24,248 nt of DNA. It comes from a virus. Taxonomy: Duplodnaviria > Caudoviricetes. Made by a program: the position numbers and the translations under genes. The notes under the pieces were generated by a model. It did not search any database and was not told the DNA's origin. It saw only the letters and a program-made list of their open reading frames with translations. Each line of letters begins with the position of its first letter. Positions within the stretch are counted from its first letter, which is position 1. Of the stretch, positions 1,585-21,024 are shown piece after piece. Location of the stretch: positions 1 through 24,248 of IMG/VR virus record IMGVR_UViG_3300031848_000045, one strand, 5' to 3'.

Positions 1585-1824
1585 TTACTTTATGTTAACA
1601 ATATCATGGAAGTCTGGATCTATCTGCTTAATCTTAAGCATTAACTCCTCGGTCTTGTTTTCCACGGACAGGTGTTCTTCAGGGGTGGACTCTGAGCCTA
1701 GATTGGCTTGTAATGAGGCGTTTAGACGTAACAATTCGTCTATCTTAACTCTAGATTCTTCACAAGTCTTATAGCTCGTGTCTTGATTCTTGCCTTTAAG
1801 CCAATCTATATATTCGTTTCTCAC
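1585..1824 (-). CDS. Hypothetical protein
   Basis: 79-aa ORF; GTGA start/stop overlap with the upstream nuclease gene. Confidence 0.7.
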   Translation of the reverse strand: MRNEYIDWLKGKNQDTSYKTCEESRVKIDELLRLNASLQANLGSESTPEEHLSVENKTEELMLKIKQIDPDFHDIVNIK

Positions 1825-2618
1825 AATGTTCCCTCTTCGATGTAACTATCTATTTCCTCAGTGCAAGATACAAAATATTTATCATACATTTCTAGCGTGT
1901 ATTTGTACTTCTGCCTCCCACTCTCAAGGAACTCAGGAGATACATCAAATATACCTACGTTGTACGGGAAGTTCTTGCCTATTACAATGAACTTGAACTG
2001 ATCCAATCCAACTGCATCTGCATAGAATGCTGCTTGCATATCGTAGTGATATTTCTTACAGTCATATTTGAACTTATCTATGCCTCCGAACTCTGCGGTA
2101 GTCTTAATGTCTGCGATAAAGTCAAACGATTTAAGGTCTAATTTACCTTTACACTTGATTCCTTTATCGGTAGTCCAGGTAACTGCCTGTTCCTTTTCTG
2201 CTTGAGAGATTAACTCCATTACCTTCGGGTGGTGGAATAGAGACATACACATAGCATCGATCTTGTCCAGATCTTTCACTGATATTATACTCTTACCAAC
2301 TGACTGAGCGTGAGATAACTCAACCATCTTCCACTTTTTGTTTATAGTAGATGTCATTCCTTTTTCCTTTTCAGGCCTAAGCTCTGTATCTAATATGTAG
2401 AATTGGTCATTGAACTTGTGGGGTTCTAATGCCATGCAGTGGAATGCACTACCGAATGTCATAGCAGGGGTTGCTTCGGGTGGAGAATCTAAGTATGCTC
2501 TGAAATCTGCTGGAGACTTAAGTAAGTTCTTTAGCATTGAGCAACTAACGTGTGTCTTGTCTGCGAAATATACTTTATCGTCAGCAAGGCTTTCTGTAAA
2601 CTTTTTGGTTGTTTTCAT
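1821..2618 (-). CDS. PD-(D/E)XK exonuclease, RecE/exonuclease VIII-like (DUF3799-type)
   Basis: SxSxLK, FGSAFHxxxLEP, CKGKLD...DIKTT, YxYxMQAAFY motifs. Confidence 0.88.
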   Translation of the reverse strand: MKTTKKFTESLADDKVYFADKTHVSCSMLKNLLKSPADFRAYLDSPPEATPAMTFGSAFHCMALEPHKFNDQFYILDTELRPEKEKGMTSTINKKWKMVELSHAQSVGKSIISVKDLDKIDAMCMSLFHHPKVMELISQAEKEQAVTWTTDKGIKCKGKLDLKSFDFIADIKTTAEFGGIDKFKYDCKKYHYDMQAAFYADAVGLDQFKFIVIGKNFPYNVGIFDVSPEFLESGRQKYKYTLEMYDKYFVSCTEEIDSYIEEGTL

Positions 2619-2646
2619 AGTGTTTGTTTTAAAATGTTTAAGGCAT

Positions 2647-2671
2647 AAAAAAGAAGGCCGAAGCCCTCTTT
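2647..2671 (-). terminator. Intrinsic terminator
   Basis: Minus strand AGAGGGC-UUCG-GCCUUCU then U-tract; G-U pair and cUUCGg loop fix the strand. Confidence 0.8.
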
Positions 2672-2716
2672 CTATTAACCAATTGAATAACCAACAATTA
2701 TGACAACCAAATCATA
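2647..2716 (-). ncRNA. Candidate small regulatory RNA (~70 nt)
   Basis: Flanked by a Bacteroidota-type promoter and a terminator; body UAUGAUUUGGUUGUCAUAAUUGUUGGUUAUUCAAUUGGUUAAUAG is antisense to phage start regions. 5' end approximate. Confidence 0.55.
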
Positions 2717-2719
2717 CAC

Positions 2720-2749
2720 CAAATATAGGTTATATAATCAGATTGTCAA
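2720..2749 (-). promoter_or_regulatory. Bacteroidota housekeeping-sigma-type promoter
   Basis: Minus strand TTGACA (2749-2744) ... TATATTTG (2727-2720), matching -33 TTG / -7 TAnnTTTG. Confidence 0.7.
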
Positions 2750-2762
2750 GCTATTGCTAGGA

Positions 2763-3122
2763 TTACTTTTTAACAGTCATCTTTCCTCTAGGTCTATTGG
2801 CCTTAACTGCCTCTTTCTTAGCGGCTTTCTTTACTGCCTTCTCTGGTTTAGCTGTGGCTACCTCAGCGGTTTGCTTTGCTTGGAAGTCCATTTGCTCCCA
2901 TACAAGACGCTGGATAGTACCAGCAGCATGACTTGCTCCAATGAAGTTAACCATCATGTCTTCCTTCATAGTTGGAGTGATCTTCACCCCAGCAGCCTCA
3001 AACATTTCTGTTAAATGTCCTTCAACGTGAGTTTCTAGTTCAGTGATAGCTTTCCCTAACGGAGAGTTTCTGAATTCTTGTTCTTGCTCAGTAACGGCAG
3101 CAATTTCTTTAATCTTTCCCAT
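2763..3122 (-). CDS. Hypothetical protein with Lys/Ala-rich C-terminal tail
   Basis: 119-aa ORF in operon; tail KPEKAVKKAAKKEAVK. Confidence 0.75.
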   Translation of the reverse strand: MGKIKEIAAVTEQEQEFRNSPLGKAITELETHVEGHLTEMFEAAGVKITPTMKEDMMVNFIGASHAAGTIQRLVWEQMDFQAKQTAEVATAKPEKAVKKAAKKEAVKANRPRGKMTVKK

Positions 3123-4108: not shown

Positions 4109-4518
4109 TAGAAGTTGTATGAATCTAAGCGTGTCTTCTGAGCGTCTGCGACTTTACGTGCTCGATCATTAGACTCCTTATTAGTTTCTAATAGATATAG
4201 ATAATCTTCCCAGCTACCATTAGCGAGAAAATTGTTAGGATATTTTCTGAACTTCTCCTCAAAAGCGTTATGATACAATGGTATTAACTCCATTATAGTA
4301 GCTTTCTGTTGGTTGTTTAGCTGTTTCCACTTGATAAACGATTGACTCTTAGTCTTGCTTACCCCGTAGGCTTTATAGAAGTCCAGGAAATCCTGCGTGT
4401 AACTTGACATTACCTTCTCTTTAGGTTCGTATCCATCTTTCGATGTAATTACGTTCATTAAGAATTCAGCATCCTTAATTATCTTACCCAGAGTTTTCAG
4501 TATCAGTTCTCGGTTCAT
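4108..4518 (-). CDS. Putative replication initiator/helicase-loader-type protein (conserved phage C-terminal helical domain)
   Basis: Pattern FxxFYxxY...K....WxxL...Y...KYPxxFLxxxxWED; stop overlaps the helicase ATG. Confidence 0.6.
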   Translation of the reverse strand: MNRELILKTLGKIIKDAEFLMNVITSKDGYEPKEKVMSSYTQDFLDFYKAYGVSKTKSQSFIKWKQLNNQQKATIMELIPLYHNAFEEKFRKYPNNFLANGSWEDYLYLLETNKESNDRARKVADAQKTRLDSYNF

Positions 4519-4909
4519 CTTCAATTGGTTTGTTGGTTTCTAATATGGTTATATGACACCCTGCCTTTTCCTTATCGTATAAGTAAGTCTCAAATGAGGG
4601 CATTATTTCGTCGCAGTTGTCGTCGTGTATCCATCCGTATATGGTCATCTGATCTTGTACGGTTTGTAGTGGATTAACGTAATCGAACTTGTGTCGTGTT
4701 CCTCGTATAAACTTGAACGATATATGTACAGGTTTTTGTAATCCGTCGATGACAGACCTAAACTCTTCAGCATACTGCTCCCAATAGGGTTTAGTATTTT
4801 TGATGTAGTTCATTACTGTCTTTGAATGGATCATGTGTTTCCCAGTCCAGCGCTTACCATTCTTAGATGAAGGTGTGCTTAGTGGGATAAAGTATGTTCT
4901 CTCTTCCAT
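4484..4909 (-). CDS. RusA-like Holliday junction resolvase
   Basis: PSSKN, FDYVNxxxxVQD and GWIHDDN acidic motifs. Confidence 0.7.
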   Translation of the reverse strand: MEERTYFIPLSTPSSKNGKRWTGKHMIHSKTVMNYIKNTKPYWEQYAEEFRSVIDGLQKPVHISFKFIRGTRHKFDYVNPLQTVQDQMTIYGWIHDDNCDEIMPSFETYLYDKEKAGCHITILETNKPIEDEPRTDTENSG

Positions 4910-4913
4910 AAAA

Positions 4914-4921
4914 CAAAGATA
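4914..4921 (-). promoter_or_regulatory. -7 promoter element TATCTTTG
   Basis: Exact TAnnTTTG 4 nt upstream of the ATG at 4909. Confidence 0.55.
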
Positions 4922-4970: not shown

Positions 4971-5324
4971 CTAGAAAGGCATTGATCCATGATCAACAGG
5001 TGCTGTTGCCTCTGCTGAATCTGCTTTAGCCTCACCTTTATTGGTGAATACCTTCCAAGCATTAAGGTCTGTATAGTACTTACCTTTATACTCTCTTGAT
5101 TCTACGTCAAAGCTAACGTCTACTTTCTGATCTACCTTGTTGTACTTAACAAAGTTGTCTACTTTTTCTCCTCCAAAGAGGTTGAACGCTACGGTCTTAG
5201 CGTATTCACCGTCGGTCTCAACAACGAAGTGTAGTTTTTTCCACTCTTTGCCTGTAGATTTAGATATACCAGATTGTAATTCACCGATTGTCTTGATTGT
5301 TCCTGTAATTTGTAAGTTGCTCAT
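4971..5324 (-). CDS. DUF3127 family OB-fold protein (SSB-like)
   Basis: GkeWKK..FVVET...YxKxVAF...VxVxFDVESREYxGKYYTxLxAWK and PF terminus; Bacteroidota-typical. Confidence 0.85.
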   Translation of the reverse strand: MSNLQITGTIKTIGELQSGISKSTGKEWKKLHFVVETDGEYAKTVAFNLFGGEKVDNFVKYNKVDQKVDVSFDVESREYKGKYYTDLNAWKVFTNKGEAKADSAEATAPVDHGSMPF

Positions 5325-5364: not shown

Positions 5365-5395
5365 AAAAAATAGGAAGGGATATTATCTCCCCTCC
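5365..5395 (-). terminator. Intrinsic terminator
   Basis: Minus strand GGAGGGGA-7 nt-UCCCUUCC followed by UAUUUUUU. Confidence 0.7.
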
Positions 5396-8885: not shown

Positions 8886-9113
8886 CTATTGTTTAGTTGG
8901 TTGGTTAGCCCATGAAGGGATACTGTCTCTGATTTCTTTCTTTTGTTCTTTAGTTAAGAGGCTGTATAGATACTCTATCTCATCTCTTGGACTATCACAT
9001 TCTTCTAGTACCCATAATGAGTACCATTCATCGAATTCCTTACCCATAAATTGCTGTATCATAATTTGGTTATTTAGTCGATTGATAATTGAAGGTTTAC
9101 TTTGATTTTCCAT
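8886..9113 (-). CDS. Hypothetical protein
   Basis: 75-aa ORF; start may be internal (M18). Confidence 0.6.
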   Translation of the reverse strand: MENQSKPSIINRLNNQIMIQQFMGKEFDEWYSLWVLEECDSPRDEIEYLYSLLTKEQKKEIRDSIPSWANQPTKQ

Positions 9114-9995: not shown

Positions 9996-10337
9996 TTAGC
10001 AGGCTGCCATTCCGAAGAAGTAGAAAGCTTTAATGCCTTTCTTTCCTTTATACCCTCTGCGTTCTTTCATTCGCTTGAGTACGGCTCCTGTTATTTCTAC
10101 GCATACACAATCACGCTTATCTAAGCTTGATAGTATTTTGTCTTCCCACTTATCGAACGCTGCCGTTCCATATCTTGGGTTTCCGTTTGCTATAGAAAAT
10201 CCATGGCAAGTACTTATTGTACCGTTGTATCCATCGTGCCCATCTTCGTACTCAGCTTCTTCTACTGCTGAATGAAATGCTTCTCCTGGACTTTTGAAAC
10301 GTCCTACTTCTAGTGCTGAAAAATCACATGCTCCCAT
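9996..10337 (-). CDS. Conserved-looking phage hypothetical protein
   Basis: MGA...AFxxAVEEAxYExGHDGYNGTIST...FxFFGxAA pattern. Confidence 0.8.
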   Translation of the reverse strand: MGACDFSALEVGRFKSPGEAFHSAVEEAEYEDGHDGYNGTISTCHGFSIANGNPRYGTAAFDKWEDKILSSLDKRDCVCVEITGAVLKRMKERRGYKGKKGIKAFYFFGMAAC

Positions 10338-10360
10338 AATTGTTTTGTTTTAATTGGTTG

Positions 10361-10536: not shown

Positions 10537-11016
10537 TTATTTAATGGTTATTGTATATGACTCTCCCATAGGTGAATCGTGATGACTCATTGTTGCGTAA
10601 TACACGCCTTCTTCGTCTTCGCTCCAGATCTTGAATGTTAGGTCTGATTCGATTGCGATAGCCTTGAAGATGTCTACACCCTCTTCGATTTCTATCTCTT
10701 TCTCTCCAGATCTATTTCTCCAGCCCATGTTCTTGCCTTCTATCTCGGCAACTCTTCCTTGATACTCTCCGAAGTAGTCGTTCATGTCTTCCTCGAAATG
10801 CTCGTAAGCATCTCCAGGTAGATTTTCATCCTGCCATACAATCTCTTCTATCAGGTCTTTATCAATATCTGCTATATTGAATTCCCCAACCCTCTTGTCG
10901 TGGTTATCTGACTTATAGTGTTCATATCTTTCTATGAATTCGTGCTTCTCATCCATATAAACATCTACCTCATAGTCGATGTACTGATTAATGTTGTACT
11001 CTGCAATTTTTTTCAT
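10537..11016 (-). CDS. Acidic hypothetical protein
   Basis: 159 aa with GWRNRSG and SHHDSPMGE motifs. Confidence 0.8.
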   Translation of the reverse strand: MKKIAEYNINQYIDYEVDVYMDEKHEFIERYEHYKSDNHDKRVGEFNIADIDKDLIEEIVWQDENLPGDAYEHFEEDMNDYFGEYQGRVAEIEGKNMGWRNRSGEKEIEIEEGVDIFKAIAIESDLTFKIWSEDEEGVYYATMSHHDSPMGESYTITIK

Positions 11017-11032
11017 GATTTGGTTGTTTTGG

Positions 11033-11215
11033 TTATAGTTTTTTGAATAATCCAGGCATTGCTTCTATTGCGGCATCATTGATCATTGAAACCACAACAC
11101 CTTCATTATTCGTGTGTGTGTACATTTTTGATTCTTCCTGAAAGATGTATATACTACCTTTTAGTATGTCTCCTTTTTCATGTTTCTGAGTTACTAATAG
11201 CTCTATTTTTTTCAT
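11033..11215 (-). CDS. Hypothetical protein
   Basis: 60-aa ORF in operon. Confidence 0.65.
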   Translation of the reverse strand: MKKIELLVTQKHEKGDILKGSIYIFQEESKMYTHTNNEGVVVSMINDAAIEAMPGLFKKL

Positions 11216-11223
11216 CTTATTGT

Positions 11224-11430
11224 TTAGATTTGTTTAGCTCTAGTTAATACATTGACGGGTTCTTTACCTCGTCCTATTAACAGCTTGTCTACTGCGATAG
11301 CCGCCTCTCGCTCTGTATCAAACTTATTCCTGCCTACACCTTTCATGTTTACGTACCAGCGCTGAGCGCTACTTGTTTTAATACTAGCAACATGTTTGTA
11401 CTCGCTAGGAGCGTAATTCATTTTGTTCAT
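11224..11430 (-). CDS. AP2-like DNA-binding domain protein
   Basis: YKHV...WxV...FDTEREAAIAVD pattern. Confidence 0.6.
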   Translation of the reverse strand: MNKMNYAPSEYKHVASIKTSSAQRWYVNMKGVGRNKFDTEREAAIAVDKLLIGRGKEPVNVLTRAKQI

Positions 11431-11442
11431 CTTAGTCTTGTT

Positions 11443-11535
11443 TTAGTTGTTTAAAAATAGTATCGCCAAATAAAACACCCCAGCTGCCAATATTGAAGCT
11501 ACGCACCATTCAAACAAGTTATTTTTCTTCTTCAT
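11443..11535 (-). CDS. 30-aa single-TM peptide (MKKKNNLFEWCVASILAAGVFYLAILFLNN)
   Basis: Hand translation; start and stop both lie within 21-bp repeats. Confidence 0.6.
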   Translation of the reverse strand: MKKKNNLFEWCVASILAAGVFYLAILFLNN

Positions 11536-11536
11536 C

Positions 11537-11734
11537 TTAGTCTTGTTTTAGTTCTTTGATTCTTTGATTCAATGCTTTTGCAATTTCCTCCACAATAAAA
11601 CCATCATACATACTGTCAATCATATCTATGACATTTTCTAGCTCCTCTACACCTCTTTGTTTAGCATACCTCTCAACTTGTGATTTAAGGTCGCTATCTG
11701 AAATGTCTAAAGTTATCGTTTGTGATTCATTCAT
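11537..11734 (-). CDS. Hypothetical protein ending ELKQD
   Basis: 65 aa; C-terminus encoded by the repeat. Confidence 0.75.
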   Translation of the reverse strand: MNESQTITLDISDSDLKSQVERYAKQRGVEELENVIDMIDSMYDGFIVEEIAKALNQRIKELKQD

Positions 11735-11735
11735 C

Positions 11736-11900
11736 TTAGTATTGTTTTAGTTCGTTAGGGATTTCCATCCATCTAATTACTTCACCTTTCAATGTAGTTT
11801 CCCACATATCTAACCATTCTGTGCCTGTGTAGTAGCACATCTTTATATAACCATTATCCATTCTACACACATAGCTTCCTTCTTTTTTTGGTTGTTCCAT
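11736..11900 (-). CDS. 54-aa DUF551-like protein (MEQPKKEGSYVCR...VIRWMEIPNELKQY)
   Basis: Hand translation; PxxxGxY...W.....VxxWMxIP pattern. Confidence 0.7.
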   Translation of the reverse strand: MEQPKKEGSYVCRMDNGYIKMCYYTGTEWLDMWETTLKGEVIRWMEIPNELKQY

Positions 11901-11944
11901 CTTAGTCTTGTTTTAGTTTATATTCCGTATTCCGATATGCGATA

Positions 11945-12460: not shown

Positions 12461-12482
12461 AGGGAGAACCGAAGTCCTCCCT
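12461..12482 (-). promoter_or_regulatory. Stable UUCG hairpin without U-tract
   Basis: AGGGAGGAC-UUCG-GUUCUCCCU just downstream of the DUF932 gene; probable mRNA 3' stabiliser. Confidence 0.6.
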
Positions 12483-12489
12483 GTTAGTA

Positions 12490-13416
12490 TTATAGTGTTG
12501 CTACAAATGCGTCTATCTTAGCGAATGCTTTGTTAGACATCTTTGCGCCACCACCTATCATAAGTGATTCGTCTCTACCGAACGCTCGGTTAGGTACTGA
12601 TTTCTTGTGGTTTACGAAGTGTGTTACTCCGTTGAATAATCCCCACATGGTCTGTCCGTGAACTCCCATCTCCGTTACAATAGATGACTGAAGATCCATT
12701 GCTGCGTTGATTTTTCTAGAAGAGTAGTGTTCTGCATACTCACTATGACTCATAGCTCTGTCAATACCTGAAAGGTCTTTCCACATATTATCCTTAAAGT
12801 CCATTAGTTTTCTGTCAGTGAATATCTCGATGTTACTCCATTCTTCGAATTTCGTATACATCTCCTCTTCTGCTGCCTGATTGGCTGCAATACTTTGAGG
12901 TATGTTGCGTAACTGCTCTTCGATGGTACTGTTGTGACGCATTTTAAATTGAGCTTGGTTGTGGAATTGGTAGAACTGATTAGCACAGCTTACCACTTTG
13001 TTGCCAAAGCCTATTCTTACACCATGCTTTCCGTCATGCCCCCAGGTTGCTATTACAAACTTCACTAAGGTGTCGTCTGCAATTTTAACCTCGTCGTTTA
13101 ACCTAAGCTGGATGAAGCATTGCTTACCTCCGTTGATAGGTCCTGAATGACTGACTGTATAGTTGTTTTCTGTCGCAACTTCCTCTATCGTTTTGATGAT
13201 AGACTCGTTTTGAGTTACGTGGTACGATGAACCTACCACTCCGAGCGACTCTTCTGTTGAGTCGTTTACCGTTGCGAACCAGGGTGTTTCAACAAACTCT
13301 GAGTGTGTTGCTATTTGCCCTTCTTCGTTTACACTAACTCTTTCGTCAGCTCTGTATAACTCTCTTTTTGATACGGTGAAGTCTAATCCGATTGCAATTA
13401 AATCTTGGTTTTTCAT
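12490..13416 (-). CDS. DUF932/DUF945 family protein (LGT_TIGR03299-like)
   Basis: LGVVGxxYxxxQN, HDG, VSCANQF, RH, GxTxWGLFNGVTxF motifs. Confidence 0.88.
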   Translation of the reverse strand: MKNQDLIAIGLDFTVSKRELYRADERVSVNEEGQIATHSEFVETPWFATVNDSTEESLGVVGSSYHVTQNESIIKTIEEVATENNYTVSHSGPINGGKQCFIQLRLNDEVKIADDTLVKFVIATWGHDGKHGVRIGFGNKVVSCANQFYQFHNQAQFKMRHNSTIEEQLRNIPQSIAANQAAEEEMYTKFEEWSNIEIFTDRKLMDFKDNMWKDLSGIDRAMSHSEYAEHYSSRKINAAMDLQSSIVTEMGVHGQTMWGLFNGVTHFVNHKKSVPNRAFGRDESLMIGGGAKMSNKAFAKIDAFVATL

Positions 13417-13470
13417 AATCGTGTTGTTTATTTAGTTGATTTGGTTACTTGTTTTGGATGATTGTTAATA

Positions 13471-13929
13471 CTACCAGGAAGCCTGGTACATATAGCTAGG
13501 ATATTCATCTTTATTATCCTTAAGTTCTTCTCTTATTACTCTCGCAGTTTCTTCTATGTCTCCGTAGTAATACTCGTCATGAGCCGTTGATCCAAAGAAA
13601 AAGCCAGACGATGCAGGTAGCAAGTCAGGATTCTTTTCTTTGACAACTTTCTCGCATAAACTTGCAAGGTCTTCTAGGTCGTCTAAGCTTACGTCAGATT
13701 CTTGACACGCATCTACTCCGTCTTGACATTTATTCACAAACCATTGGTGGATTGCGTTTGACTTACGCCAATACATAATCTGCTCTACTACATGCGTTAT
13801 CCTTTCGGATTTGATGTGAGGTTGTGGTTCGTTGTTTTTAGTTACAACAACTAAATGTCTTTGACTAGGTTCGTGGTGACTCCAGTTCTGAACATAAGTT
13901 CTTTTACTTAAATACATGTCTAATCCCAT
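13471..13929 (-). CDS. Conserved phage protein (MGLDMYL...YWRKxNAIHxWF...YQASW family)
   Basis: Recognisable motif set; function unknown. Confidence 0.85.
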   Translation of the reverse strand: MGLDMYLSKRTYVQNWSHHEPSQRHLVVVTKNNEPQPHIKSERITHVVEQIMYWRKSNAIHQWFVNKCQDGVDACQESDVSLDDLEDLASLCEKVVKEKNPDLLPASSGFFFGSTAHDEYYYGDIEETARVIREELKDNKDEYPSYMYQASW

Positions 13930-13947
13930 AATAGTTGGTTTGGTTGG

Positions 13948-14232
13948 TTATATCTCATAATTTGTACGGCCATGAGACGAAAGCCGTTCTATATCTCCGA
14001 CAAGCTCCAGCTTAGCTGAATACTTACCAGAGAATTCTGTTATAAGGTTGTCATAAGCATACTTATTTATCTCACGATCCTTTAAGTCGTTAAGGCAATT
14101 ACCTTTAAGTAATCCTTGAACGGCATAGTCCGTGTGTAAATGTGATAGCTTAGTTCCTTTTGATTTATTGTGGTAAACCTCTTTCCACACTCTGACTTTG
14201 TATCTACATAGCCAGATCTTCTTCTTCTCCAA
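13948..14232 (-). CDS. Hypothetical protein
   Basis: 94 aa, TTG start 2 nt after the upstream stop. Confidence 0.65.
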   Translation of the reverse strand: MEKKKIWLCRYKVRVWKEVYHNKSKGTKLSHLHTDYAVQGLLKGNCLNDLKDREINKYAYDNLITEFSGKYSAKLELVGDIERLSSHGRTNYEI

Positions 14233-16726: not shown

Positions 16727-16984
16727 TTATAGTTTATTATAGTTATTAACATATTCCTTTGATACTAACGAGTAGTTTATGATTAGCGGATTCTCTCGAA
16801 CCTTTACTAATTGTATTCCTACTTGTTTCTTTAACCAACCTTTGAACGCATCCGTTCCTAAGTTGATTATGTTTTGAGGTACGACAGCGTACTTGTTCGT
16901 GAAGATTATCACGTTCTTACCTGTCTTTGAGGTTGTATTTAATACGTTCCTCTTGTTCCATTGCATTACTTTGATTTTTGCCAT
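16727..16984 (-). CDS. Basic hypothetical protein
   Basis: 85 aa, preceded by pseudoknot copy 1. Confidence 0.7.
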   Translation of the reverse strand: MAKIKVMQWNKRNVLNTTSKTGKNVIIFTNKYAVVPQNIINLGTDAFKGWLKKQVGIQLVKVRENPLIINYSLVSKEYVNNYNKL

Positions 16985-16993
16985 AAGCTAGTT

Positions 16994-17026
16994 CTGGGAA
17001 GTTTAACGTCTTTTAACCAGTAAGAC
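16994..17026 (-). promoter_or_regulatory. H-type pseudoknot motif, copy 1
   Basis: GUCUU-A-CUGG-UUAA-AAGAC-GUUAAACUUC-CCAG. Confidence 0.7.
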
Positions 17027-17532: not shown

Positions 17533-17805
17533 CTAGTTTACTACCATTGAGGCGTTAGTACTTAGGCATAACGGATACCCTACAGCTAAGAAGGACTGTA
17601 ACTCTTCTATAGTGTTTGTAAGTCCTTGTATGTCATCGTCGATTTTGTGTATATCTTCAATGAGATCACTTAATTGCTGTTCGTTAACGGCAAGAGCACA
17701 TTCATTTTCAATATCTGACTTGTCGTCTTTTAATACTTGAATTAGCATAGTGAAAGCGTTAAGCTTTCCTTCTGCATCGCTGAATCGTTCTGGTGTTTTT
17801 GTCAT
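17533..17805 (-). CDS. Hypothetical coiled-coil protein
   Basis: ORF track 17533-17811; ATG 17805 preferred from pseudoknot spacing. Confidence 0.7.
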   Translation of the reverse strand: MTKTPERFSDAEGKLNAFTMLIQVLKDDKSDIENECALAVNEQQLSDLIEDIHKIDDDIQGLTNTIEELQSFLAVGYPLCLSTNASMVVN

Positions 17806-17814
17806 AGGCATTCT

Positions 17815-17851
17815 CAGGGAAGTTTATTGTCTTTTGTGTAACCTGTAAGAC
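17815..17851 (-). promoter_or_regulatory. H-type pseudoknot motif, copy 2
   Basis: GUCUU-A-CAGG-UUACACAA-AAGAC-AAUAAACUUC-CCUG. Confidence 0.7.
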
Positions 17852-17852
17852 T

Positions 17853-17904
17853 GTTAGTTCCTCTGCATTCAGCGATGAATGTTACGAGCACATGCTCCAG
17901 AGGT
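17853..17904 (-). ncRNA. Three-way-junction motif, copy C
   Basis: CCUCUG/CAGAGG, GAGC/GCUC, CAUUCA/UGAAUG, tail AACUAAC. Confidence 0.65.
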
Positions 17905-18240: not shown

Positions 18241-18256
18241 TGTTGGTTGTTGTTTA

Positions 18257-18309
18257 GTTAGTTCCTCCTACGTATATCGCTTACGATAAGACCTACGTCT
18301 TTAGGAGGT
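18257..18309 (-). ncRNA. Three-way-junction motif, copy B
   Basis: CCUCCUA/UAGGAGG, AAGAC-GUAG-GUCUU, CGUA/UACG, tail AACUAAC. Confidence 0.65.
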
Positions 18310-18313
18310 GGTG

Positions 18314-18592
18314 TTAGTTGCTACTTTTTAATATGTACTCCATTTCTTTTTCTATTAAGTTAACTGTTTCCATATCTGTATGAGTGTAAGTTCTCTCTAT
18401 AGATGTGTCGTCCATTTCTCCGTATTCAGAGAATGCACTAATTCTTACTCCTCCAATCACGACTTTTACTACGTAGTAGTCAGTTTGAAGTAATACATGA
18501 GCCATCCCTGAGATAAATCCTCTTTGAGTATTATACACAGAGTATCCAGTGAAGTCTCCGTTAAGTAATGTGTTGATTCTATATGTAATCAT
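18314..18592 (-). CDS. Hypothetical protein
   Basis: 92 aa, preceded by pseudoknot copy 3. Confidence 0.75.
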   Translation of the reverse strand: MITYRINTLLNGDFTGYSVYNTQRGFISGMAHVLLQTDYYVVKVVIGGVRISAFSEYGEMDDTSIERTYTHTDMETVNLIEKEMEYILKSSN

Positions 18593-18600
18593 AACGAATG

Positions 18601-18638
18601 CAGGTAAGTTTAACGTCTTTTAGTAAAACCTGTAAGAC
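18601..18638 (-). promoter_or_regulatory. H-type pseudoknot motif, copy 3
   Basis: GUCUU-A-CAGG-UUUUACUAA-AAGAC-GUUAAACUUA-CCUG. Confidence 0.7.
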
Positions 18639-18650
18639 TTTTGGTTGTTA

Positions 18651-19616: not shown

Positions 19617-19653
19617 AATAGTTAGAACACTGAGGTAGTTCAAGCTCCATTTA

Positions 19654-19706
19654 GTTAGTTCCTCTTTAGTGTAGTGAACACGGTAAGACCTACGTCTTCA
19701 AGAGGT
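19654..19706 (-). ncRNA. Three-way-junction motif, copy A
   Basis: CCUCUU/AAGAGG, AAGAC-GUAG-GUCUU, GUGU-UCACU-ACAC, tail AACUAAC. Confidence 0.65.
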
Positions 19707-19712
19707 GTGTTG

Positions 19713-20757: not shown

Positions 20758-21024
20758 ATGCCTAATAATAAGTACGGAGGAAAAGGAAGTGTAAGTGTAT
20801 ACTCCAAGACGACGAGTAAGACTAAGTCTAAGACAAAAAACGGTAAAGAGAAGGTAAAGAACAAGTACAAGAACATTACTACTACGACGGACTCTACTGG
20901 AACTACTACATATAAAACAAAGTCTAAGACTAAGAACGGTAAAGAAACAGTGAAGACTAAATTCAAGTTTAAGCCTAAAGGAAAGGGCAAGACTTTAAGG
21001 GAAAGAACTAGATCGAGAGGTTAA
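20758..21024 (+). CDS. Very basic Lys/Thr-rich protein with internal repeat
   Basis: KTKSKTKNGKE(K/T)VK twice, with synonymous differences between the DNA copies. Confidence 0.75.
   Translation: MPNNKYGGKGSVSVYSKTTSKTKSKTKNGKEKVKNKYKNITTTTDSTGTTTYKTKSKTKNGKETVKTKFKFKPKGKGKTLRERTRSRG

Follow-up and report, generated by a model that had tools for sequence, protein, structure and literature searches.

The mRNAs of Bacteroidota lack Shine-Dalgarno (SD) sequences. Among phage sRNAs, PreS of lambda reportedly acts by base pairing. In Bacteroides thetaiotaomicron, the FopS sRNAs (Rfam RF04319) block the start codons of several mRNAs, with susC start regions among their targets; a FopS copy is reported in one Caudovirales phage, and RbpB binds both FopS and GibS (PMC11697453, in the part of the paper covered). 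GibS uses an extended 30-50-nt AU-rich seed around the start codons of SD-less mRNAs (PMC7366714, covered in part), and the c4 RNA of phages P1/P7 acts in trans on phage mRNAs by base pairing (PMC12197685, covered in part). In the Cellulophaga phage phi14:2, early genes are transcribed by a virion polymerase and later genes by the host polymerase; it also produces plentiful long non-coding RNAs of unknown function (10.1101/2020.03.07.982082, in the sections covered). How crAss-like phages turn down their early genes is not settled in the literature covered. We describe a unit in such a phage genome that, judging from its sequence, quite probably encodes a ~70-nt sRNA that blocks the translation of several genes of the phage itself. 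No report of such an RNA was found in the crAss-like and flavobacterial phage literature covered, subscription papers lying mostly outside this coverage.

The window, i.e. the whole stretch of 24,248 nucleotides analysed here, is a 24-kb virus record that is about 36% complete. Positions 1-20100 carry a leftward run of small genes and, following it, the genes for SSB, RusA, an initiator-like protein, a helicase and exonucleases; the terminase gene runs rightward from 21897 and is 28-30% identical to crAss-like terminases. In the relative G001 (64.7 kb, 96% complete) a major head protein is encoded, along with a giant ORF that carries a GSDHDGD motif and is likely, by sequence, a virion polymerase. 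The terminase and this giant ORF are the features that resemble phi14:2, as far as the available part of its description goes. We found no cultured relative; exonuclease matches in phage records were below 31% identity among the matches listed. A tRNA and tmRNA search of the whole window returned none.

The unit (2646-2727, minus strand) lies between an upstream 119-aa gene of no known family (2763-3122, minus strand), the last gene of the RusA-initiator-helicase run, and an exonuclease VIII-like gene (1821-2618, minus strand; phrog_412, E 1.6e-57), which served as the downstream synteny anchor. Its layout as read from the sequence has four parts: a Bacteroidota sigma-A -7 box TATATTTG (2720-2727), a U/G-rich body, a UUCG hairpin and a U-tract; the predicted RNA is ~70 nt long. 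The promoter, body and UUCG terminator that the sequence-only reading had described from this DNA are thus all present. The predicted body (2673-2715, minus strand, 43 nt) carries three UUGGUU motifs and a CAU and is a collinear mirror of positions -25..+12 of the phage's own start regions, and the intrinsic-terminator-like hairpin with its UUCG loop and U-tract occupies 2646-2672 (minus strand). A TTG at 2747-2749 (minus strand), 19 nt upstream of the box, is by its spacing a possible -33 element. The promoter had been proposed on the strength of a TTGACA together with TATATTTG; both are there, but the hexamer (2749-2744) is not kept in other lineages and here lies in a hairpin arm paired to UGUCA of the body. 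Since the flavobacterial box TAnnTTTG spans -12 to -5 (PMC9723704, covered in part), +1 is predicted at 2715, and the fourth and fifth bases after the box are a pyrimidine and a purine, as expected of a start site, in 14 of 15 representatives.

Among 59 related loci, four were without upstream DNA, and the remaining 55 were scored. The unit, including its box, precedes the exonuclease VIII gene in 55/55 (54 found by script, and L221 by eye); the window's own locus is counted among them and some contigs are represented more than once, so that they correspond to about 23 sequences (22 distinct among the 54 found by script). They fall into six lineages (A-F) with exonuclease identities of 57-100%, and promoter-anti-leader-terminator units, which the earlier reading had suggested looking for in related phages, recur in all of them. 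The body ends with GGUUA in 13/13 representatives and starts with GAUUUGG in 9/13. The CAU, rightly noted earlier in the window RNA, is held by 10 of the 13 and missing in the other three, which belong to lineage E. In the terminator stem 6 of 9 pairs are changed on both sides (17 units), and its covariation score was reached by 0/500 column shuffles; mean conservation z was 4.3 for the body vs 2.0 for the arm upstream of the box. One strong match was found in each of five records searched, one of which is 96% complete. On this sequence evidence it is a conserved, real RNA unit, and it likely makes a small RNA, because a conserved promoter-to-terminator cassette mirrors the phage's own start regions.

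The likeness to FopS, as described in the part of that report covered, comprises a sigma-A promoter, a length of about 65-70 nt and an intrinsic terminator, present here as sequence features alone, and also a U-rich 5' part with CAU, a GGUUAA before the terminator and start-codon pairing, which is predicted here. In contrast to FopS, the window unit is single-copy, has predicted phage targets, carries three UUGGUU motifs and, relative to FopS as far as it is described there, has a masking arm. The FopS model (RF04319; cut-off 56 bits) gave no match on the unit's strand in the window, and its best scores in 11 records were 16-31 bits, the best matches that we read being reversed start regions beside hairpins; any reversed leader beside a hairpin would therefore seem to resemble FopS to the model. 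One such weak match (18.4 bits) at 2608-2679 on the plus strand consists of the reversed exonuclease start and the shared hairpin. Rfam 15 over the whole window gave 0 matches at E<=1, with a best score of 18.4 bits in 2560-2800. The FopS R1/R1' 5' seed is absent, the 5' end of the unit being GAUUUGGUU or GUUGAUU, and the multicopy trait of FopS is replaced by one strong copy per record in the five records. Because it fails the model, has a different seed and is single-copy, the unit appears to work like FopS without being a FopS member. With GibS it would share extended start-codon pairing on SD-less mRNAs, GibS having two seed regions; unlike the unit, GibS is 145 nt long with a non-canonical promoter and host metabolic targets (PMC7366714, in the part covered). 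The c4 RNA and PreS differ from it, as far as the sources covered describe them, in having enterobacterial hosts, few targets and no shared leader.

Pairing was scored against start regions whose start codons were called by script; the first test set had 58 regions, one of them not ATG, and later tests used the corrected 51 starts. In plain duplex energy with the 58 regions, both the mean and the top ten of the window RNA beat 300/300 mono- and 300/300 dinucleotide shuffles, so that the complementarity pointed out earlier exceeds that of shuffled controls. The single best site taken alone is weak, being equalled by 18/300 dinucleotide shuffles. Of 351 further 43-mers from the minus strand, none matched the pairing of the RNA, and in each of 6/6 genomes the own RNA beat 60/60 dinucleotide shuffles. 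Pairing is stronger at same-strand than at opposite-strand starts (p 1e-4 to 0.04; six genomes), and stronger with the own start regions than with late genes. The duplexes are collinear, with the 3' GGUUA on -25..-15, the middle on the near leader and CAU on AUG.

The best predicted target on the minus strand is the start of a 159-aa gene (11015-11033) with a 13-nt perfect match (-19.2 kcal/mol net, rank 1/51), followed by the starts of a DUF932 gene (13404-13441, -19.0 net), a 113-aa gene with 10-nt and 8-nt matches (10330-10360, -18.5 net), a phrog_7971 gene (13915-13951, 13/14, -17.9 net) and a 58-aa ORF with its ATG at 9062 (9052-9087, -17.7 net). The replication-initiator-like gene start (4518-4540, minus strand) has an 11-nt match (-17.2 for the short and -14.4 for the long form of the RNA). 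The complementary sites listed before this analysis hold, viz. 11015-11027 (13/13), 13927-13940 (13/14), 10335-10344 (10/10) and 10352-10359 (8/8). That reading took early genes as the targets; own early starts are indeed preferred, but replication genes, the initiator-like gene at 4518 and SSB at 5324, are predicted targets too. At 11413-11922, four small genes in a row have nearly the same leader, 21-25 nt long with GACTAAG at its end before the ATG; pairing with the RNA was moderate for the three scored (-6.5 to -13.8).

The margin becomes smaller once folding costs are counted. At 37°C the top ten were matched by 2/142 shuffles and the mean by 13/142, and at 20°C with 60-nt targets shuffles matched the mean in 42/103 and the top ten in 12/103, where the window RNA is not clearly better. 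Ten other representatives were scored at 37°C with folding costs: the top six were matched by 0/30 shuffles in six of them, and by 2/30 in C3, 4/30 in E1, 4/30 in F and 11/30 in E3. Several mRNA starts thus lie above background, though not at 20°C, and the signal is weak in lineage E, which is without CAU. Reversed start regions did as well as the RNA in 6/51 cases, so that the RNA does not surpass a good inverted leader; it behaves like a generic one of good quality, as a multi-target blocker would, which is not proof of function. Taking the conservation of the unit, the lack of conservation of the plus-strand ORF and the preference for own early starts together, the multi-target anti-leader sRNA proposed in the sequence-only reading appears the best account of the locus.

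Support for co-variation of seed and leaders inside the clade is moderate on the sequence comparisons. Own-lineage pairing ranked 12, 38, 23, 6, 6, 7 and 167 of 720 (six lineages, seven tests), and the lineage-pairing preference was matched by 1/28 shuffled sets; the support is no more than moderate because the gene-family test was positive in 12/21 with p 0.10 and lineage-private 6-mers split into 74 higher and 76 lower. It appears clearer in a second phage group. With a search model built from 17 units, a like unit was found in 7/9 loci of more distant phages with exonuclease identities of 31-36% (L149:8834-8935, L150:7666-7757, L151:7452-7538, L152:8775-8868, L153:9071-9157, L154:8636-8724 and L155:5254-5346), sitting behind SSB-helicase, two or three genes after a helicase of the same PHROG families. 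In this unit the box overlaps an upstream stop codon, a hairpin at the 5' end hides CAU, and an open GGUU-rich tract and a terminator are also present. Three of these RNAs are of a UUGGU type and four of a UAGGU type: among called leaders beside UUGGU-type RNAs, 14 of 91 have AACCA and 0 AACCT, and beside UAGGU-type RNAs, 11 of 105 have AACCA and 18 AACCT. Moreover, one orthologous leader switches with the RNA type in 7/7 second-group phages. This switch supports the mechanism, not directly the window copy, because it is one evolutionary event in a separate family.

Across the promoter lies a long hairpin that the earlier anti-leader reading had left out (27 bp at 2760-2691, z -5.5, 0/200 shuffles). 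The partner of its 5' arm (2728-2760, minus strand) is the 25 nt with which the body begins, and in the read-through form the box TATATTTG is left in the loop (TATATTT). The hairpin begins 3 nt past the upstream stop codon. The 3' UTR of the 119-aa gene is the long form of the RNA; the arm is absent from the short transcript. Six of the 27 pairs are G-U and the transcribed strand folds at -23.7 vs -8.7 kcal/mol for the opposite strand (RNA parameters), and for these reasons the model favours a structure formed by the RNA of the transcribed strand; on the same energies, a hairpin formed at the DNA level by the template strand was rejected as unlikely. Opening of the seed (first 30 nt) is computed to cost 4.6 kcal/mol in the short and 20.2 in the long form, top-ten net binding in the window falls from -17.0 (short) to -11.0 (long), and the long form binds worse than the short in the window and in 10/10 other representatives. 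The initiator-like start at 4518-4540 is still predicted to be bound by the long form via the unmasked 3' motif.

In A1 and A2 the arm beats 150/150 shuffles and 83/83 host arms. The own arm-body pairing ranks 2/720; a 16-nt arm test was weaker (25/720, and 77/720 for the outer arm alone) because it missed the lineage A arm. The hairpin is kept in A2 with different letters on both arms, and the F version is shorter. Its register varies: the loop holds the box in A and F, whereas in B-E the box falls in the 5' arm. The arm is borderline in B3, D1, D2, E2 and F (5-14/150), not above shuffles in B1, B2, C1, C1b, C2, C3, E1 and E3 (29-139/150), and in the second phage group a mask was not above shuffles (15-95/100). 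Since it exceeds chance only in some lineages and is absent in the second group, the modelled mask is solid in the window's lineage, not a general rule.

The blocker would work as follows. Host RNA polymerase would start the transcript at 2715, and pairing would be nucleated by the open UUGGUU motifs at AACCA words lying 8-25 nt upstream of the AUG; its extension would open the weak 5' hairpin, and CAU would then cover the start codon, in the manner of FopS in Bacteroides. The A/C-rich leader and AUG of at least ten own early and replication genes are predicted to be paired in this way, with their translation likely blocked. The same bases would also end the rusA-initiator-helicase mRNA, where the spacer upstream of the box would fold back on the seed, and activity would for that reason be confined to the transcript started at the internal promoter. 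A promoter-and-lock arrangement, in which the tail of the replication mRNA folds over the seed and initiation in the hairpin loop frees a silencer of early genes, is a tentative extension of the folding models, and we hold it rather doubtful.

Several other explanations were weighed against this blocker. The unit might be a cis element, i.e. a structured 3' UTR serving as an RNase III-type processing or stability hairpin with a terminator, or as an attenuator of the exonuclease operon, in which case the anti-leader look would be a by-product of pairing with the A-rich arm. The position of a 27-bp hairpin directly after a stop codon between co-directional genes fits this, as do the RNase III homologues listed for B. 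thetaiotaomicron (PMC7366714, in the part covered). Yet the body is more conserved than the arm, the hairpin register shifts between lineages, the 3' GGUUA is kept in all 13 representatives although it lies outside the window hairpin, the start of the neighbouring exonuclease gene pairs weakly (-6.7 to -15.3), and in the second group the leaders switch without a mask; we regard a cis role as unlikely. Contradicted by conservation is translation of the plus-strand ORF of 104 open codons (2700-3014), for which the stretch would be a leader and gene start. It has a good-looking leader and ATG, but no PHROG match, and the frame is open for 0-15 codons in 11 of the 12 other representatives and 59 in one; no plus-strand TAnnTTTG box is listed before it and it is antisense to a conserved gene, so that we rejected it as a gene and give this explanation hardly any credence. 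A leaderless peptide (AUG at +1, five codons) was likewise rejected, not being kept in lineages C-E.

CsrB is a protein-titrating decoy RNA, and UUGGUU loops could similarly titrate an RNA-binding protein, e.g. an RbpB-like RRM protein. Each unit has two to four GGUU motifs, two of them in predicted loops in the window, lineage E does without CAU, and FopS and GibS are bound by RbpB (PMC11697453, covered in part); set against this, the UGG to AGG change goes with the leaders in the second group, and the order and spacing of the motifs mirror start regions, which makes a decoy distinctly unlikely. Host mRNAs had been offered as an alternative to early genes; as main targets they would imply a broad shut-off or the hitting of a receptor, e.g. 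a SusC transporter. FopS acts on susC start regions (PMC11697453, covered in part), AACCA occurs in 22/233 host starts, and one host regulator start pairs at -35 kcal/mol. The sampled host starts nevertheless pair worse than the own ones: 2/233 vs 11/51 phage starts reach <= -20 kcal/mol, and own starts were better at p<0.05 in 12/13 representatives, the sample being 400 kb of one flavobacterium that is not necessarily the phage's host. The -35 match, with the response-regulator start L322:4943-5599 (G011), does not recur in homologues (mean over 23 of them -12.2, next best -25.4) and was rejected as chance. These comparisons run counter to the host proposal, and host mRNAs as main targets seem improbable.

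For the multi-target blocker of the phage's own genes, the polymerases suggest a timing. By analogy with phi14:2, early genes would be damped once the host polymerase takes over, and an RNA made by host polymerase that blocks early starts would fit such a hand-over. Tuning of replication is an equally open role, because the replication genes of phi14:2 are early and the predicted targets include SSB and the initiator-like gene. Unlike phi14:2, whose whole replication module is early in the part of its description covered, the window has host-type boxes inside this module. One lies before rusA (4914-4921, minus strand) at the same place in G001 and G002; by its sequence it is likely the start of the read-through mRNA, with the rusA ATG on the predicted +1. 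This box and that of the unit are the only intergenic host-type boxes on the early strand that recur in G000, G001 and G002. The promoter-and-lock arrangement, if real, would amount to an RNA-based switch from early to middle genes in crAss-like phages, triggered by the choice of start site. A single phage RNA reading the shared leader word would be address and shut-off mechanism in one, and the masked long form would show an anti-leader sequence sitting silently at an mRNA end. The gain would, on sequence grounds, be a new family with a distinctive, lineage-limited self-masking hairpin, not a new principle, since FopS and GibS already act in this mode.

Other features of the window were also noted. 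The rusA gene seems leaderless (4909-4921), its ATG beginning at the fifth base after TATCTTTG, likewise in L198, while other lineages have a short leader. A further TATATTTG box inside the exonuclease gene (1946-1953; also G001:31797) could drive a phosphoesterase-like gene. GC hairpins lie between co-directional genes at 12462-12480 (after DUF932; also in G002) and 5373-5395 (before SSB). Before early genes, repeated elements of 40-58 nt (16975-17014, 17796-17859, 18582-18646, 18253-18310 and 19650-19707) carry GTCTT/AAGAC inverted words, a similar word being present ahead of G001:19478; they are candidate virion-polymerase promoters or processing sites. An 88-aa lysine/threonine-rich ORF (20758-21024, plus strand) with an internal 55-nt repeat opens the rightward run, and a search for a family match to it gave none.

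Finally, searches were extended outside the clade. When species genomes were scanned by pattern for a host homologue, none of the 61 matches had both box and terminator, and model R1 over 41 Flavobacteriaceae genomes (104 candidates scored per genome) gave one match, at a gene end without box. Loose viral pattern scans yielded mostly chance matches, with a terminator in 12/119 and a box in 3/106, all identical to the window, and among 24 matches nine outside the clade were not units. Other viral contigs combine TATATTTG, GATTTGGTT and a terminator-like hairpin (L035:401-480, L115, L139, L093 and L097), where L093 and L097 are two copies in one contig.
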